DNA of 64,000 nucleotides from Octopus sinensis (lineage: Eukaryota): positions 14,458,464 to 14,522,463 of the forward strand of contig NC_043011.1 of NCBI RefSeq assembly GCF_006345805.1, given 5' to 3'. Positions within the stretch are counted from its first letter, which is position 1, and each line of letters starts with the position of its first letter. Below, in pieces: positions 810 through 61,149 of this stretch. The position numbers and the translations under genes were made by a program. Under the pieces are notes generated by a model, which was not told the DNA's origin, did no database searches, and saw only the letters and a program-made list of their open reading frames with translations.

Positions 810-3800
810 GGTTTGGATTTGGAAACACTGAAAATAAGAACATACCCTCTCGAAGATCTGCTCCCAACTAACAGTGTCAACAAATTCAAAATAAGCAAGC
901 GAAGAATCTCTGTTCTCCCCTTTCCACCAGCGTGGGTTAAAATCATCAAACTCTATGCTTATTTCGGTAAAGTCCGAAGCATTAATCAGAGGGAGATTAA
1001 TTATAATTTCAACAATTGAGGGCAAAATTAATTAATTATTAATCAATTTCACCAAGTGTTCAGTATGCAAAGGGACCATTCAAGGCGAATTCAAATTATT
1101 ACATTATATAAAAGGGCTTAGTAAAATAAATTACTTTGCCGCATACTGAACTCATTAGAAATAGCAGCCAAAAAACTTTTTTAAGGCTATTTCTAATACT
1201 TAAAGAAAATCTCTCTCATATATAGTGTTTGCATAATTTAACTCACAAAAGTTTGGGGGTAATGACATCGAAAAATCAAATGCTAAGGTTATTCGAGAAC
1301 GTACGTTTCAAGATTAGTCAAAACAACATTTCTATCATCGGCTCGGAAATTCCTTGGTTTGGATTTGGAAACACTGAAAATAAGAACATACCCTCTCGAA
1401 GATCTGCTCCCAACTAACAGTGTCAACAAATTCAAAATAAGCAAGCGAAGAATCTCTGTTCTCCCCTTTCCACCAGCGTGGGTTAAAATCATCAAACTCT
1501 ATGCTTATTTCGGTAAAGTCCGAAGCATTAATCAGAGGGAGATTAATTATAATTTCAACAATTGAGGGCAAAATTAATTAATTATTAATCAATTTCACCA
1601 AGTGTTCAGTATGCAAAGGGACCATTCAAGGCGAATTCAAATTATTACATTATATAAAAGGGCTTAGTAAAATAAATTACTTTGCCGCATACTGAACTCA
1701 TTAGAAATAGCAGCCAAAAAACTTTTTTAAGGCTATTTCTAATACTTAAAGAAAATCTCTCTCATATATAGTGTTTGCATAATTTAACTCACAAAAGTTT
1801 GGGGGTAATGACATCGAAAAATCAAATGCTAAGGTTATTCGAGAACGTACGTTTCAAGATTAGTCAAAACAACATTTCTATCATCGGCTCGGAAATTCCT
1901 TGGTTTGGATTTGGAAACACTGAAAATAAGAACATACCCTCTCGAAGATCTGCTCCCAACTAACAGTGTCAACAAATTCAAAATAAGCAAGCGAAGAATC
2001 TCTGTTCTCCCCTTTCCACCAGCGTGGGTTAAAATCATCAAACTCTATGCTTATTTCGGTAAAGTCCGAAGCATTAATCAGAGGGAGATTAATTATAATT
2101 TCAACAATTGAGGGCAAAATTAATTAATTATTAATCAATTTCACCAAGTGTTCAGTATGCAAAGGGACCATTCAAGGCGAATTCAAATTATTACATTATA
2201 TAAAAGGGCTTAGTAAAATAAATTACTTTGCCGCATACTGAACTCATTAGAAATAGCAGCCAAAAACTTTTTTAAGGCTATTTCTAATACTTAAAGAAAA
2301 TCTCTCTCATATATAGTGTTTGCATAATTTAACTCACAAAAGTTTGGGGGTAATGACATCGAAAAATCAAATGCTAAGGTTATTCGAGAACGTACGTTTC
2401 AAGATTAGTCAAAACAACATTTCTATCATCGGCTCGGAAATTCCTTGGTTTGGATTTGGAAACACTGAAAATAAGAACATACCCTCTCGAAGATCTGCTC
2501 CCAACTAACAGTGTCAACAAATTCAAAATAAGCAAGCGAAGAATCTCTGTTCTCCCCTTTCCACCAGCGTGGGTTAAAATCATCAAACTCTATGCTTATT
2601 TCGGTAAAGTCCGAAGCATTAATCAGAGGGAGATTAATTATAATTTCAACAATTGAGGGCAAAATTAATTAATTATTAATCAATTTCACCAAGTGTTCAG
2701 TATGCAAAGGGACCATTCAAGGCGAATTCAAATTATTACATTATATAAAAGGGCTTAGTAAAATAAATTACTTTGCCGCATACTGAACTCATTAGAAATA
2801 GCAGCCAAAAAACTTTTTTAAGGCTATTTCTAATACTTAAAGAAAATCTCTCTCATATATAGTGTTTGCATAATTTAACTCACAAAAGTTTGGGGGTAAT
2901 GACATCGAAAAATCAAATGCTAAGGTTATTCGAGAACGTACGTTTCAAGATTAGTCAAAACAACATTTCTATCATCGGCTCGGAAATTCCTTGGTTTGGA
3001 TTTGGAAACACTGAAAATAAGAACATACCCTCTCGAAGATCTGCTCCCAACTAACAGTGTCAACAAATTCAAAATAAGCAAGCGAAGAATCTCTGTTCTC
3101 CCCTTTCCACCAGCGTGGGTTAAAATCATCAAACTCTATGCTTATTTCGGTAAAGTCCGAAGCATTAATCAGAGGGAGATTAATTATAATTTCAACAATT
3201 GAGGGCAAAATTAATTAATTATTAATCAATTTCACCAAGTGTTCAGTATGCAAAGGGACCATTCAAGGCGAATTCAAATTATTAAATTATATAAAAGGGC
3301 TTAGTAAAATAAATTACTTTGCCGCATACTGAACTCATTAGAAATAGCAGCCAAAAAACTTTTTTAAGGCTATTTCTAATACTTAAAGAAAATCTCTCTC
3401 ATATATAGTGTTTGCATAATTTAACTCACAAAAGTTTGGGGGTAATGACATCGAAAAATCAAATGCTAAGGTTATTCGAGAACGTACGTTTCAAGATTAG
3501 TCAAAACAACATTTCTATCATCGGCTCGGAAATTCCTTGGTTTGGATTTGGAAACACTGAAAATAAGAACATACCCTCTCGAAGATCTGCTCCCAACTAA
3601 CAGTGTCAACAAATTCAAAATAAGCAAGCGAAGAATCTCTGTTCTCCCCTTTCCACCAGCGTGGGTTAAAATCATCAAACTCTATGCTTATTTCGGTAAA
3701 GTCCGAAGCATTAATCAGAGGGAGATTAATTATAATTTCAACAATTGAGGGCAAAATTAATTAATTATTAATCAATTTCACCAAGTGTTCAGTATGCAAA

Positions 3801-5523
3801 GGGACCATTCAAGGCGAATTCAAATTATTACATTATATAAAAGGGCTTAGTAAAATAAATTACTTTGCCGCATACTGAACTCATTAGAAATAGCAGCCAA
3901 AAACTTTTTTAAGGCTATTTCTAATACTTAAAGAAAATCTCTCTCATATATAGTGTTTGCATAATTTAACTCACAAAAGTTTGGGGGTAATGACATCGAA
4001 AAATCAAATGCTAAGGTTATTCGAGAACGTACGTTTCAAGATTAGTCAAAACAACATTTCTATCATCGGCTCGGAAATTCCTTGGTTTGGATTTGGAAAC
4101 ACTGAAAATAAGAACATACCCTCTCGAAGATCTGCTCCCAACTAACAGTGTCAACAAATTCAAAATAAGCAAGCGAAGAATCTCTGTTCTCCCCTTTCCA
4201 CCAGCGTGGGTTAAAATCATCAAACTCTATGCTTATTTCGGTAAAGTCCGAAGCATTAATCAGAGGGAGATTAATTATAATTTCAACAATTGAGGGCAAA
4301 ATTAATTAATTATTAATCAATTTCACCAAGTGTTCAGTATGCAAAGGGACCATTCAAGGCGAATTCAAATTATTACATTATATAAAAGGGCTTAGTAAAA
4401 TAAATTACTTTGCCGCATACTGAACTCATTAGAAATAGCAGCCAAAAAACTTTTTTAAGGCTATTTCTAATACTTAAAGAAAATCTCTCTCATATATAGT
4501 GTTTGCATAATTTAACTCACAAAAGTTTGGGGGTAATGACATCGAAAAATCAAATGCTAAGGTTATTCGAGAACGTACGTTTCAAGATTAGTCAAAACAA
4601 CATTTCTATCATCGGCTCGGAAATTCCTTGGTTGGATTTGGAAACACTGAAAATAAGAACATACCCTCTCGAAGATCTGCTCCCAACTAACAGTGTCAAC
4701 AAATTCAAAATAAGCAAGCGAAGAATCTCTGTTCTCCCCTTTCCACCAGCGTGGGTTAAAATCATCAAACTCTATGCTTATTTCGGTAAAGTCCGAAGCA
4801 TTAATCAGAGGGAGATTAATTATAATTTCAACAATTGAGGGCAAAATTAATTAATTATTAATCAATTTCACCAAGTGTTCAGTATGCAAAGGGACCATTC
4901 AAGGCGAATTCAAATTATTACATTATATAAAAGGGCTTAGTAAAATAAATTACTTTGCCGCATACTGAACTCATTAGAAATAGCAGCCAAAAAACTTTTT
5001 TAAGGCTATTTCTAATACTTAAAGAAAATCTCTCTCATATATAGTGTTTGCATAATTTAACTCACAAAAGTTTGGGGGTAATGACATCGAAAAATCAAAT
5101 GCTAAGGTTATTCGAGAACGTACGTTTCAAGATTAGTCAAAACAACATTTCTATCATCGGCTCGGAAATTCCTTGGTTTGGATTTGGAAACACTGAAAAT
5201 AAGAACATACCCTCTCGAAGATCTGCTCCCAACTAACAGTGTCAACAAATTCAAAATAAGCAAGCGAAGAATCTCTGTTCTCCCCTTTCCACCAGCGTGG
5301 GTTAAAATCATCAAACTCTATGCTTATTTCGGTAAAGTCCGAAGCATTAATCAGAGGGAGATTAATTATAATTTCAACAATTGAGGGCAAAATTAATTAA
5401 TTATTAATCAATTTCACCAAGTGTTCAGTATGCAAAGGGACCATTGAATTTGTTGACACTGTTAGTTGGGAGCAGATCTTCGAGAGGGTATGTTCTTATT
5501 TTCAGTGTTTCCAAATCCAAACC

Positions 5524-11007: not shown

Positions 11008-11778
11008 AAATATCATGTAGTGCCTTTTCTAACTGTTGTTTCGATGGTAACTGGAAACTACTGCAATTCAGATATATTATTTTTTCTTTTCCTTTCTTCT
11101 GGATGTCATCTTGCCGCAAAGAAACACCGTCTGGTTTTCACAAATTTTTTTCCAATAATCTTTTTCTTTTTAAAAAACAGTGTTACATCTAAAAATTATG
11201 TTTGTATCACGACAGAGGCAAAACTAGCTTCTTTAACTCTATACTTTTCACTTCGATACCCGGGGGAAGACAAAACTGGTTGATTTTTTTTTACAGTGTT
11301 TATTTGCTTACACGTTTTGACCACATTTTACATTCAAAATATCCACCAGACACATTTGCACACTCTATGAAGCAAAACATTAAAAACAAGACGAAAAAGA
11401 CAGATTGCACTCAGAATGAACGAAAAGAAGAAAATATTGTATATTTTTATGAAAATTTAATAAGAGAGAAAAAAAATGTTATTTGTTCTAACTGTTTAAC
11501 AAATAATCTTAAAGTAAGCGATAACAACAAGAACAACACTCGTATAGAGACAAACATGTTAAATCATTCATATGGTAATAGCGTTAAAAAAGTTAGTTTT
11601 ACCTATGTCGTGACACAAACAGAATTTTTAGACTTAACACAGTTCGCAAGAAAGAAATTATTAGAAAAAAAATTTCAAAACAAAGCCAGTGTCTCTTTGT
11701 CACAGTGTAAAATACAAGAAAGGGACAATATGTGTGTGTGTGTATATATATATATATATGTGCGTGTGTGTGTGTATG

Positions 11779-11920
<142 letters not shown>

Positions 11921-21449: not shown

Positions 21450-23560
21450 TGGTTGTTTCTGATTAAAGCAAAGGATCAACAATTTTAAAAGGAGGGATTT
21501 AATCGACCTCACTGATCCCAGTACTTGACTAGTACGATATTATCAAGATCTCGGAGGATTGAAAAGTTAAGGTGACTTCGGCGGGATTTTATACCCAGGA
21601 CGCAAAATGCCCGAATAGATACATACCGAAGCACATATTTTCTTACGTAAGGCGGCGATCTGGCAGAAACGTTAGCACGTCGGGCGAAATGCGTAGCCGT
21701 ATTTCGTCTGCCTTTACGTTCTGAGTTCAAATTCCGCCGAGGTCGACTTTGCCATTAATCTTTGCGGGGTCGATAATTAAGTACCAGTTACGCACTGGGG
21801 TCGATGTAATCGACTTAATCCCCTTGTCTGTCCTTCTTTGTCCCCTCTATGTTTAGCCCCTTGTGGGCAATAAAGAAATACATATTTTCTTACGTTCTGC
21901 TGACTCCATCAGCCCACAACCATTAATAGAGAAATAGTTGGTTCTGATTTAGGCAGAAGGCCAGAAATTTTGAGGGGGAGAAGTTAATCGGTACAGTTCG
22001 CACCAGTTCTTGACTAGTTTTTTTTATTTTATCGACCCCAAAGAATGAAAGGTAAAGTTGATCTCGATGAGATTTGAAACTACAATGTAAAGAGCCGGAC
22101 GAAATGCCACAAAGCATTTTGCCCGGCGTTCTAATCATTCTGCCAACCCATCGACCTTTTTTTTTCTGAGGGGAAAAACGATTTTCGAACTAACAAATTG
22201 ACTACAAATTGCAACTTTTAGATAAAAACGTATTGATAAACGTATCGTTCCGCCATACTTAGCAGAATGATATGTTAAGACATTGATAAGCTAGCAACAC
22301 TGCATGAGACATGCTGAGTAAGATCTGATCTTAGCCATATGGATGTAGGCATTGCTCACTATCTTTAATGTTATCATTATTACTAAGGCAGTAAAGGCGG
22401 TGAGCTGGCAGAATTGGTAGCATTCCAGGCGAAATGCTTAGCGGCATTTCGTCTGTCTTCACATTCTGAGTTCAAATTCCACCGAGGTCGACTTTGCCTT
22501 TCATCCTTTGGGGGTCGATCAAATAAGTACAAGTTGTGTACTGGGATCGATAACAACCGACTATCCCACTCCCCACAATTCCAGGCTTCCAGCCTGTTGC
22601 AGAAAGCATTATTTTTAAGGCAGCGAGCTGGCAGAATCGTTAACCCGCCGGAAAAATTGCTTAGCGCTATTTCGTCCGTCATTAGGTTCTGATTACAAAT
22701 TCCGGCGAGTTGACTTTGCCTTTCATCATTTCGGGGTTGATAAAATAAGTAGCAGTTGAACACTAGGGTCGATGAATTGAACTTACGCTCTTCCCAGAAA
22801 TTGCCGCTTTGTGCTAAAATTTGAAACCATTATTATATAAATATAATTCACTAATACAAAGATTATTTTTGTTTTCAAATCCCAAACTCTGTATATCTCT
22901 ATATAGATTATATTGGATAAATTCTCCATTTTTTAAAGAGATATTATTTGTCACAATAGTTACTTCGACCAGGAAGGTTTCTTCACAATATCCGGTCGAA
23001 CTGTTTTGGTCAATTTGTCTATGTGCAGAAACAGCTCACCCAAAACGGTCACTTTGTCATTGTCTGCGACCGTCTTGGCGTATGTTTATACCACCTCTCC
23101 TGTTGATATTTCATGGCACTGGTATAATACGCATTATATAATAAGGGCGGCGAGCTGGCAGAAACGTTAGCACGCCGGGCGAAATGCTTCGCGGTATTTC
23201 ATCTGCCGCTACGTTCTGAGTTCAAATTCCCCCGAGGTCGACTTTGCCTTTCATCCTTTCGGGGTCGATTAAATAAGTACCAGTTACGCACTGGGGTCGA
23301 TATAATCGACTTAATCCGTTTGTCTGTCTTTGTTTGTTCTCTCTGTGTTTAGCCCCTTGTGGGTAGTAAAGAAACAGGTATTTCGTCTGCCGTTACGTTC
23401 TGAGTTCAAATTCCGCCGAGGTCGACTTTGCCTTTCATCCTTTCGGGATCGATTAAATAAGTACCAGTTACGCACTGGGGTCGATATAATCGACTTAATC
23501 CGTTTGTCTGTCTTTGTTTGTCCTCTCTGTGTTTAGCCCCTTGTGGGTAGTAAAGAAATT
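21450..23560. mobile_element. Cluster of Meta/MESC-domain SINEs (21649-21879 +, ~21940-22155 -, ~22395-22605 +, ~22617-22830 +, 23143-23560 + with internal duplication)
   Basis: Repeated gcctttcatcctttcggggtcgat motif. TSDs acatattttcttacgt (21633-21648 / 21880-21895) and tggtataa.acgcatt.tata (23120-23140 / 23560-23580). Confidence 0.85.
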
Positions 23561-24304
23561 GGTATAAAACGCATTCTATAGAAGTTCTAATTATGTTTTG
23601 TTTGTACGTGTGTTCTCTGCTTATATATTCTCTCAATCTAGAATATCATTATATATTATCCTGTTTACTTTTGGTATTCAGCTGTTTTAATCTTTAAATC
23701 AGGTGGAGAACCTATACGCCAAGGAAACCGGGAAAACGACCTTTATGAGATAGGCATGGCTCGAGAAGGAACAAACAACAAACCTAGGTAATTAAGTATT
23801 CGTAAGATTATTACATGATGATGTAAAGATAGTTGTATTCTCATCATGGTTGTTATATTCACAATGTTTCAGATGTATTTATCGCTCTTCTTCAAGTGTC
23901 TCGTCGCATTTGGTGATATATACCCAGAATTTTGAACGGAAACATTTCTTAAAACCAAAGGGCAGAATGTCCTCAATTCGTTGGCCATACTTGAGGTATT
24001 CTCGTTTATTTGTGATACCATGTGCTCGAACCTGACTCGCGTATTCAATCTATATGTATTCTAGTTGATGCGAAATGATCAAGCGGTATCAAAAGTACGA
24101 GAATAACAATACGAAAATATTTCGCTATGGATAACCAAACGAAAACAATTCACCCCGGTAGACTGAAAGAAATTTTTCATTCAAATTCTGAAAATATCAT
24201 TGAATACTCTATACAGGTACCTGAAGAAGGCCAGAGGGTACAACGATTGAATCATTGCGAATAAGGTGACTAAAATCAAGACACTAAGGTAAAAGTAAAG
24301 TTAC

Positions 24305-27345: not shown

Positions 27346-27472
27346 CCTCCTTCCCTTCTTTCCTGAGTCTCAGTAATACTTTAATTGTTCCACGTCCTGC
27401 GTTGCTGTGTTTTTTTTCTCTTTTTTTCTGTGTTTTCTTGTTTGGATATATATATATATATATATAATATAT

Positions 27473-27516
<44 letters not shown>

Positions 27517-27527
27517 ATATATGTATA

Positions 27528-27857
27528 TGTAAGAATATTTTGCGTAATAAGATAAAAAACCAAGGCTATGTAGATATTAGAGCATTTATAGATAGAAGGT
27601 CTTACAGCTGTTTCTAGGATATTTATTAATTATATCCCTTCATCGGAAACGGTGTGAGAGGATAGTTAAGTTATAGTTAGTTTAAATGTGATACAAAATA
27701 GAGAGTGAGGTGGAGAAAAGAAAATATATGCAAGATATGTATGGGTATTGAAGTTTTTTCAGGCATAATGGTATACATGCAAAAGTTCAAAAGTTCAACA
27801 GAGTTTAAAATGAGTTCTTCCAAATATAGAGTTTATAAGCAATATATATATATATAT

Positions 27858-27949
<92 letters not shown>

Positions 27950-28260
27950 GTAAGAATATTTTGCGTAATAAGATAAAAAACCAAGGCTATGTAGATATTA
28001 GAGCATTTATAGATAGAAGGTCTTACAGCTGTTTCTAGGATATTTATTAATTATATCCCTTCATCGGAAACGGTGTGAGAGGATAGTTAAGTTATAGTTA
28101 GTTTAAATGTGATACAAAATAGAGAGTGAGGTGGAGAAAAGAAAATATATGCAAGATATGTATGGGTATTGAAGTTTTTTCAGGCATAATGGTATACATG
28201 CAAAAGTTCAAAAGTTCAACAGAGTTTAAAATGAGTTCTTCCAAATATAGAGTTTATAAG

Positions 28261-28263
<3 letters not shown>
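27528..28263 (-). mobile_element. Two identical ~315-bp HHR-bearing units separated by (TA)n, period 421
   Basis: Duplicate ORFs at 27705 and 28126. Each unit is flanked by TA repeats. Confidence 0.8.
27599..27650 (-). ncRNA. Type I hammerhead motif (second copy at 28020-28071)
   Basis: Minus strand GUUU CCGAUGA ag GGAUAU aauuaauaa AUAUCC ua GAAA CAGCUG UA AGAC. Palindromic stem III; GUA triplet. Confidence 0.7.
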
Positions 28264-28314
<51 letters not shown>

Positions 28315-28320
<6 letters not shown>

Positions 28321-28530
28321 ATTTAGGAATGGTCATTTTGCCAGTTTAGCCAATAAAAACACACGCACTATATATTTGGTGTTACTTTGCTTCAGCGTTA
28401 TTTAATTTTTACATTAATCTTAATCTTATTTCGGCCAAATCTTATTGGCTAAACTGGCAAAATGACCATTCCTAAATACAACAAGCCCTGTTTCAACACA
28501 CGATTTCATATAAAAAATCTTGCAAAACAT
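28315..28530 (+). mobile_element. PLE-like element of the same family as 60041-60407: inverted piece, sense end and tail, in (TA)n
   Basis: ttgttgtatttaggaatggtc..gccaataa is inverted at 28442-28484. Tail tgtttcaacacacgatttca..cttgcaaaaca is shared with 60353-60400. Confidence 0.75.
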
Positions 28531-28871
28531 ATATATATATACATGCATACACATAAAAGTATCAGTGAATTTATATTCACTGATACTCTCATCTAAGTGT
28601 GTGTGTAAGTATGCACAAACTTTTCTTATTCGTTTATTTCTGTATTCATTTATTGAATGGCATAACGAGCAAATTATGTGAAAATTATGAATTATCCACG
28701 TGACATTGTAATAAGTTTCCTTATTTGTCCCAGAATTATCCAGGGAAATACTATTATTATCGGTATATATATTTACAACCAGTTGATTTGTAACTAGTTT
28801 GAAAAGTGCTAACACACGAAACTCTCGGTCTTGAGTCACACACACAGACATACAGACTATCTCTTCCTCCC

Positions 28872-59486: not shown

Positions 59487-59887
59487 TTTACTTGTCTTAG
59501 TCACTTGACTGCGGCCAGGCTGAAGCACCACCTTTAGTCGAGCAAATCGAAACCCAGGACTTATTCTTTGTAAGCCTAGTACTTATTCTATTGGTCTCTT
59601 TTGCCGAACCGCTAAGTTACGGGGACGCAAACACATCACCATCGGTTGTGAAGCGATGTTGAGAGGGGTGATAAACACAGACACACAAACATAAACACAC
59701 ACATACATATATATATATATATACACATTATTTACGACGGGATTCTTTCAGTTTCCGTCTACCAAATCCACTCACAAGGCTTTGGTCGGCCCGAGGCTAT
59801 AGTAGAAGACACTTGCCCAAGGTGCCACGCAGTGGGGATGTACCCGGAACCATGTGGTTGGTAAGCAAGCTACTTACTACACAGCCT
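59487..59887 (-). mobile_element. tRNA-derived SINE with CORE-like domain (second copy ~62310-62700)
   Basis: Minus strand ggctgtgtagtaagtagcttgc..ggcaccttgggcaagtgtcttc; homologous to 62310-62700. Confidence 0.75.
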
Positions 59888-60040
59888 GGATAAATTCGAT
59901 CTTTTCAGACACCCACGTTCCAGTGGATTATGTAACTTGTCAACAACGTTATCAGAACTGTTAACATCACAATATAAAAAATACAAAGATATGAAATCAC
60001 CTTTGTGATATTTCTTATAGAACTATCAATACACTATGTT

Positions 60041-60407
60041 GTTGTATTTAGGAATGGCCATGTTGCCAGTTTAGCCAATAAAAATACACGCACTATGTAT
60101 TTGGTGTTAATTTGCTTCAGCTTTATTTATATATTTTTTGGCTGATCGTTAATAAGGAGAGACACACAAATAAGAAATAAGAAAGCAAAGGACCACTGAT
60201 GAGGTCACAGAAGTGTGACGAAAGAACTCTGGCCGAAATAAGATTCAGATTAATGTAGAAAATAAATAAAGCTGAAGCAAATTAAAACCAAATATATAGT
60301 GCGTGTGTTTTTATTGGCTAAACTGGCAACATGACCATCCCCAAATACAACAATATCTGTTTCAACACACGATTTCACATCAAGAATCTTGCAAAACAAA
60401 TATATAA
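60041..60407 (+). mobile_element. PLE-like element: ~90-bp inverted piece, HHR, sense end and tail
   Basis: 60041-60130 is the reverse complement of ~60262-60352; same family as 28315-28530. Confidence 0.75.
60190..60234 (+). ncRNA. Minimal type I hammerhead ribozyme
   Basis: gga-CCA CUGAUGA g GUCACA gaag UGUGAC GAAA GAAC UC UGG-cc. Canonical core; CUC cleavage after 60229. Confidence 0.8.
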
Positions 60408-61149
60408 ACGTAATCTATACACTTTATTTAACCAAGAAGAGATTCTCTCACCACAGGCAAAACACGAGTTTATACGCTGTATACTCGAAATTGTATTGTT
60501 ATCTTACCTGTCATGTCATATTAAGTTAAACTGTATATTTATTTTCAGTTGTGAAAACTTTTGCTAACTCTAGGAACTGATCTCCCGTTTATATGATAAA
60601 AACCAAAGATGCTTATTTGTTGTCTCGGTACATTACCCAGTCAACAATGATCCGATCACTTTTTGCAGTACATACAAGGATGTTTGTTTTCTAAAACCTC
60701 GACTTCCTTGGAAAGAAAATACCTTGTACATAGATCAGTTGTCATGATAATCTAACCATAAAATCAATATAAGGCTTGACTTGGTCGATGTTTAATAAGA
60801 GACAGCTTGTCTAAAGATTAGATAGAAAATAATACAGCAATGGAAAACTCCACCCACAATATCGAACGCTGTTTCTTGTTGAGTATTTCCAGTGTAGACG
60901 TTCATTATCTTATAAAGATGTTTATTAGTTCATATTAATGTCCCTCGTCTATTCTTTATGAATAATGAAATAATGAAAAAGTAACGATGATTTCTAATTT
61001 TGGCGCAAAACCACGCAATCTTTGGACAGCAGGGTGTGGTCGATTTAATCGACATCGACTCCGGGAATTGTCTGCGACTTATTCTATGGTTACCGGATAA
61101 ATGTAAGGCAAAGTCACTTCTGGTGATATTTGGACACAGGCAGCTACAA

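Follow-up and report, generated by a model that had tools for sequence, protein, structure and literature searches.

A head-to-head Penelope-like insertion in Octopus sinensis ending at a predicted hammerhead cut, within a modest hot zone of arm ends

Insertions of Penelope-like elements (PLEs) typically carry an adjoining inverted, truncated copy, and the role of the hammerhead in the endonuclease-bearing (EN+) members is called unclear in the available text of PMC8557442. According to the accessible part of PMC11167929, the PLE protein cuts and extends both target strands, and the tail signature was traced to two start points of reverse transcription. The same part reports that ribozyme mutants of the anole element insert normally, that its main template is uncut RNA and that zero RNA-seq reads ended at the cut; in the one active in vitro PLE system found, the hammerhead was dispensable for insertion. 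For R2, the available portion of PMC3774820 describes 5′ junctions that follow the cut of an HDV-like ribozyme, with microhomology or untemplated bases. The insertion structure considered here is already known, as are ribozyme-set 5′ junctions for R2 (PMC3774820, same portion), and a literature search of papers outside subscription found no report of Penelope 5′ ends at a hammerhead cut.

The window (the whole 64,000-nt stretch of contig NC_043011.1 that was analysed) holds at 28311–28537 a head-to-head pair of arms of such a family (Table 1). Family positions are counted from the predicted cut, +1 being window position 60230, the first base 3′ of it, and −1 being 60229. The reverse complement of the minus arm (28437–28311) aligned with 60230–60356 without gaps at 92.9% identity over 127 nt, and the arm begins, at its 5′ end, with the base immediately 3′ of the predicted cut (28437 = +1), exactly where the original prediction had homology stopping; the bases that follow, 28438–28440, are AAT and not the expected GAG, as it had also stated. 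The inverted arm is present where it had been placed, but by alignment its left end is 28311, running into the (TA)n tract, and not 28315. A 421-bp tandem duplication (2.1 copies, 97%) occupies 27447–28315 and reaches the same left edge. The plus arm (28442–28537) overlaps the minus arm by 43 nt, identical throughout. Taken together, the four inserted bases and the plus arm's last five are identical over 9 nt to +8 to +16 of the minus arm, and the insert is likely a templated patch primed by 5-nt microhomology. The letters at the junction 28437/28438 rest on the assembly, none of the checked contig pieces of four DNA runs spanning it.

Table 1. Features of the window, arm-end densities and genome-wide single-position searches; signed positions follow the family numbering.
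Feature	Position	Strand	Basis or result
(TA)n tract, probable target site, left of the insertion	28263–28314		26 perfect copies
Inverted arm, +1 to +127, tail-less 3′ end	28311–28437	−	alignment to 60230–60356
Four extra bases at the head-to-head joint	28438–28441	−	sequence comparison of the arms
Forward arm, +82 to +177, with 3′ tail	28442–28537	+	alignment
Second insertion of the Penelope-like family, inverted arm, +33 to +127	60036–60130	−	alignment
Second insertion, forward arm, about −91 to +182	60139–60411	+	alignment
Minimal type I hammerhead motif, window's longer copy	60190–60234	+	fits the PMC4209133 architecture; predicted only
Arm ends per base	−50 to −35		0.14% of anchored arms (estimate)
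Arm ends per base	−34 to −30		0.62% of anchored arms (estimate)
Arm ends per base	−29 to −13		0.35% of anchored arms (estimate)
Arm ends per base	−12 to −3		0.32% of anchored arms; Set A gives 0.23 for −21 to −3
Arm ends per base	−2 to +3		1.1% of anchored arms (estimate)
Arm ends per base	+4 to +13		0.63% of anchored arms (estimate)
Arm ends per base	+14 to +23		0.38% of anchored arms (estimate)
Arm ends per base	+24 to +55		0.16% of anchored arms (counts by eye)
Search, 27 matches	+1		2 mutated full copies, 3 duplicates, 16 inverted, 1 long partner, 5 simple
Search, 23 matches	−33		5 non-truncations, 6 inverted, 1 long partner, 11 simple
Search, 24 matches	−14		9 non-truncations, 8 inverted, 7 simple
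Search, 35 matches	+3		9 non-truncations, 1 duplicate, 22 inverted, 3 simple
Search, 27 matches	+95		10–11 true ends

At +1 the joint of this copy is blunt or shares 1 nt of homology; since the minus arm ends there without microhomology, +1 is probably a physical end. Mismatch-tolerant extension carries the minus arm to −2, and gapped local alignment takes it to −8 with one substitution and a 2-nt gap. The arm might once have reached about −8, joined there by 2-nt microhomology and later lost the match through the substitution and a 2-nt deletion, which would make the +1 end only apparent; copies of this insertion's type are indeed 5–10% diverged. Such a history is very improbable, as it needs two changes within 8 nt, whereas the templated patch explains the four bases with none, and inserts are often found at joints (in 47 of the 138 inverted ones of Sets A and C, see below). 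A T at −1, as found in a subfamily comprising 23 of 129 ribozyme-spanning arms, would lengthen the minus-arm match by 2 nt. It was rejected as the cause of the boundary: T(+40) marks 21 of the 23 T(−1) copies and the minus arm has A(+40). Because the arm lacks this subfamily tag, the +1 boundary stands; judged from downstream markers, the arm is of the canonical-core type (A9, C at −1).

The junction had been explained by reverse transcription running off the end of cleaved RNA and then switching template. In that simple form the explanation does not fit, because the plus arm holds +128 to +177, beyond the start of the minus cDNA at +127. This stretch was never in the minus-arm cDNA, so a second cDNA would be needed; fold-back of one cDNA on itself is excluded by the same sequence beyond the minus arm's start. 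The preferred reading, to which a probability of about 0.6 is given, is a head-to-head pair of 5′-truncated terminal repeats made from two cDNAs at the (TA)n site, with the stop at the cut an ordinary stop in a hot zone. The two cDNAs would have been primed on opposite strands of the site and joined end to end, the first starting at +127 and ending at +1, the second starting at the tail and ending at +82. The second may have annealed by 5 nt to +8 to +12 of the first and been extended by 4 nt on that template; after release, it would have been joined to the first cDNA's end with 0–1 nt of homology.

The family is abundant: in the 2.72-Gb genome the 16-mer that follows the cut occurs 3,749 times, and two anchors further 3′ occur 3,979 and 4,824 times. 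Long copies carry an RT motif (YVDD was seen), a Cys-rich linker and a GIY-YIG motif, and family copies have natural frames open over 918 and 882 aa. Among the open frames, Pfam RVT_1 was matched at E 0.002, below the gathering score, and PF01541 (GIY-YIG) was matched weakly in a 268-aa frame (E 0.00084, 20 bits against a cut-off of 22.6); PF01541 was not reported at E 0.01 in the two long frames. From these sequence features the family is filed as a high-copy EN+ PLE, and its Cys-rich linker would point to the Neptune or Nematis clade. The best 40 RT-region copies in the genome are 99–100% identical. The repeats of the window align with the 3′-terminal part of a 2-kb body that includes the end of the ORF, and the terminal repeats with the hammerhead lie 3′ of the ORF in four of four long loci; a search of these four, all apparently 5′-truncated, revealed neither a pseudo-LTR nor a tandem full-length unit upstream. 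The N-terminal part of the ORF is a long Asn-rich low-complexity stretch (L291:2-1087, L294:2-2755 and upstream of L299), and neither the ORF start nor an upstream repeat was found in these three loci. The family has two 3′ ends, at +127 to +131 and at +183 to +185, usually one of each per inverted pair; motif hits in the fetched loci, counted with duplicates, were 144 tailed and at least 177 tail-less.

The second insertion of the window (60036–60411) provides a counter-example, its inverted arm (60036–60130) ending at +33, 32 nt short of the cut; its forward arm (60139–60411) passes intact through the predicted cut. Other high-copy short-repeat pieces lie at 59500–59900, adjoining this insertion, and at 23193–23565, and stretches resembling them also flank several fetched family loci. 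On the minus strand at 11773–11835 there is a 65-nt, 78% match to the 3′ region of the element, which may be mere low-complexity sequence.

A hammerhead had been predicted at 60190–60234, and a hammerhead-like motif lies there as stated, with the predicted cut between 60229 and 60230. Helix I has 5 bp with a bulge, helix II 6 bp and helix III 2 bp, the last closed by a loop of 2 nt, the core of the window copy having one extra base ahead of helix II; an Rfam scan of the 64-kb window at the gathering score gave 0 hits. The helix pairs are kept in 46–50 of 50 family copies, and in these near-identical copies no pair is changed on both sides (no covariation), the first six core bases and GAAA being intact in 37 of 50. 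Besides the window copy, 47 of 129 arms show the conserved core (CUGANGA...GAAA...UH), and position 9 is C in 72 of the 129. Next to long or open ORFs, every one of the 15 repeats combines C at core position 9 with U at the cut base (L280, L282–L284, L298–L301), and the apparently youngest lineage would thus spread with a doubly non-canonical core. A palindromic loop 3 for a dimer is absent, with two central A–A mismatches and a self-duplex (helix III dimer) of +0.7 kcal/mol. Furthermore, +1 to +16 is calculated to pair with +77 to +93 at −9.3 kcal/mol, against −5.1 for helix I; since the post-cut stretch 60230–60245 can pair with 60306–60322 more strongly than helix I forms, this pairing would prevent the ribozyme from folding. 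The stretches +1 to +16 and +77 to +93 are linked in many joints, that of the copy at 28311–28537 among them, and both arms of this copy end inside the duplex.

A genome-wide histogram of truncation points with a spike at the cut had been proposed as the check. A similarity search gives only the best 40 full-length copies and is unfit for this purpose, and anchored patterns demanding non-family letters upstream of an anchor were used instead to enrich truncated copies. Set A (−21 to +13) gave 347 matches, the first 100 of which were fetched and 11 dropped as internal indels; Set C (−50 to +1) gave 230, with 100 listed, 99 recovered and 4 dropped; Set B (+7 to +55) gave 497, of which 100 were classed by eye and about half were indels. 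Among unselected copies with the post-cut 16-mer, 29 of 30 (the first 30 of 3,749) continue through the cut. An estimated 65–70 of about 3,750–3,980 anchored arms (1.6–1.9%) end exactly at +1, and as one case a single arm ending there is barely above chance. There is a hot zone of arm ends at and just 3′ of the cut, from −2 to about +13, and a second at −34 to −30; the density at −2 to +13 is 2–4 times that on either side, the excess over baseline being estimated at about 5% of arms. Inverted ends step up across the cut, with 39 at +1 to +13 and 19 at −21 to −3, against 26 and 31 expected (p 0.0008).

Genome-wide searches at the single positions +1, −33, −14, +3 and +95, classed by eye, are given in Table 1. 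Under the same filter, the control position −33 had 18 ends compared with 22 at +1, and simple truncations showed no +1 peak (5, against 11 at −33). The +95 site has the same 5-base context as +1, yet only 10–11 ends. Of the 153 unselected partner ends, the 20-nt bin that includes the cut has 21, +71 to +90 has 18 and −110 to −71 has 25 (bins of 13 at −90 and 12 at −110). Simple truncations with (TA)n or (AAT)n at the joint cluster at −34 to −31 (equivalent to 60196–60199), where the catalytic core starts; the cluster makes up 11 of 19 'flank' events of Set C, some of which are long inverted partners, and 11 events at −33 genome-wide, and it likely arises from microhomology with AT-rich targets.

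Short microhomology occurs at most joints, 75 of 84 insert-free inverted joints sharing 1–5 nt. In the joint classification of Sets A and C, a partner lying further out than −330 counted as 'flank', and the class of a few joints varied between rounds of scoring. A microhomology-aware simulation, which counts exact contiguous microhomology only and draws a smoothed partner distribution from the same data, gave 4.0–5.3 head-to-head joints expected at +1, where 16 were observed, i.e., an excess of about threefold (P ~1e-4, model-dependent, the position chosen in advance); the ratio may be inflated, since the calibration window of −50 to −3 has few partner ends (6 of the 153 lie at −50 to −11). 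For inverted joints, the values were 22 against 8.4–11.8 expected at +3, where 15 of the 22 use just two partner sites (by eye), 6 against 3.4–4.6 at −33, and 8 against 11.7–15.6 at the −14 control. Within Sets A and C, the observed and expected counts at +1 were 6 and 3.4 and, respectively, 8 and 3.3; the excesses at +9 (7 vs 2.0) and −22 (6 vs 2.1) match these. Of the predicted spike there is a real but small excess at +1, but +9, −22 and −33 are similar. Since microhomology alone gives peaks of equal size, single junctions at the predicted cut prove nothing.

In a likelihood test on the 84 joints, based on a simulation weighted to reproduce their microhomology, the term 'interval contains +1' reached 1.3–1.4-fold (p 0.28–0.37), −2 to +3 reached 1.7–1.8-fold (p 0.03–0.06) and −2 to +12 reached 1.9–2.0-fold (p 0.007–0.015). 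The flat-model excess persists when the two strongest partner classes are left out. Once a slope is included, the three values drop to about 1.0–1.5, none of them significant, that for 'interval contains +1' being 0.98–1.2; the fitted slope is not a general 3′ trend, because +24 to +55 is low (0.16% per base, by eye). An excess that is not unique to +1, is missing from simple truncations, disappears with the slope and concerns arms that mostly read through does not make one copy a footprint. What remains of the original claim of in vivo self-cleavage is the modest +1 excess in inverted joints; the single copy at 28311–28537 cannot be called a footprint.

The joint excess at +1 could also be produced if the hammerhead cut a minority of the RNA in vivo, perhaps as a dimer or aided by protein, and run-off cDNAs trimmed by 0–12 nt gave the ends at +1 to +13, this copy included. 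Inverted joints at exactly +1 are in about 3- to 4-fold excess, inverted ends step up across the cut, and the +1 joints use many partners and contain inserts, with 5–7 of 10–12 having ≤1 nt of homology against 24% expected (p 0.01–0.07). The canonical-core type of the minus arm and its blunt joint point the same way, as does the precedent of R2 5′ junctions following a ribozyme cut in the available portion of PMC3774820. Canonical-core arms make up 23 of 60 near the cut and 32 of 130 elsewhere (p 0.06), but this trend is confounded by the choice of anchor, the share at −55 to −28 (11 of 31) being the same. Cleavage is further disfavoured by the simple truncations and the equal peaks at other positions, by the non-palindromic loop 3, by C9 in over half of the arms and by the degenerate core of the youngest lineage. 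Moreover, two run-off cDNAs would be expected to use the 4-nt palindrome at +2 to +5 frequently for joining, yet this was seen at only 2 loci among the 100 Set A matches listed, and the anole data in the accessible part of PMC11167929 are likewise adverse. As the source of the +1 excess, cleavage has somewhat less than an even chance. If all of that excess were cleavage, two in three +1 ends would come from cut RNA; the product of these two values leaves this origin unlikely for the copy at 28311–28537. That the threefold excess, with its tail to about +13, records some 5% of element cDNAs copied from hammerhead-cut RNA is a tentative proposal, less likely than not.

The reading of an ordinary stop is preferred because of the 29 of 30 copies that read through, the microhomology peaks at sites with no predicted cut and the anole data. 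Counted against it are the +1 joint excess, the step across the cut, the low density at +24 to +55, the weak +95 site and the blunt joint of this copy. The hot zone itself may arise because reverse transcriptase stalls on meeting the 3′ edge of the folded structure, an effect to which selection of joints by GC-rich, longer imperfect complementarity (as between +1 to +16 and +77 to +93) would add; cleaved RNA may contribute a minor share. Overall, the copy at 28311–28537 is likely an ordinary Penelope insertion within a real but modest hot zone.

If about 5% of cDNAs do come from cut RNA, this would be the first indication that minimal PLE ribozymes cut in vivo, and cutting would yield dead-end short insertions, not the proper 5′ end of the element. 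A true genomic footprint would let in vivo cutting be measured from assemblies alone in many species; the result at hand, a modest hot zone, is weaker and at most a hint of it.

Compared with the EN+ PLE insertions described in the available text of PMC8557442 and PMC11167929, the octopus family shares the order of RT and GIY-YIG, a terminal repeat with a hammerhead, extensive 5′ truncation, the inverted partner with the tail on one arm, two reverse-transcription start points, and AT-rich or microsatellite targets. It differs in the length of the tail (about 55 nt vs 30–40 nt), and the pseudo-LTR of known elements has no upstream counterpart, nor a tandem unit, in the four long loci. With the minimal hammerheads of metazoan PLEs, as far as the accessible part of PMC4209133 describes them, it has in common a long helix II, a short helix I, the G10.1–C11.1 pair, the extra base between 9 and 10.1 and a helix III too short alone, whereas the centre of its loop 3 is not palindromic and more than half of the copies, those adjoining ORFs included, have C9. 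With R2, as presented in the available portion of PMC3774820, the octopus case shares the idea that a ribozyme cut fixes the cDNA end and that the joint uses microhomology or added bases. In R2, however, the cut is the 5′ end of full-length copies, while in the octopus family the predicted cut is where about 2% of arms stop, the majority extending past it.
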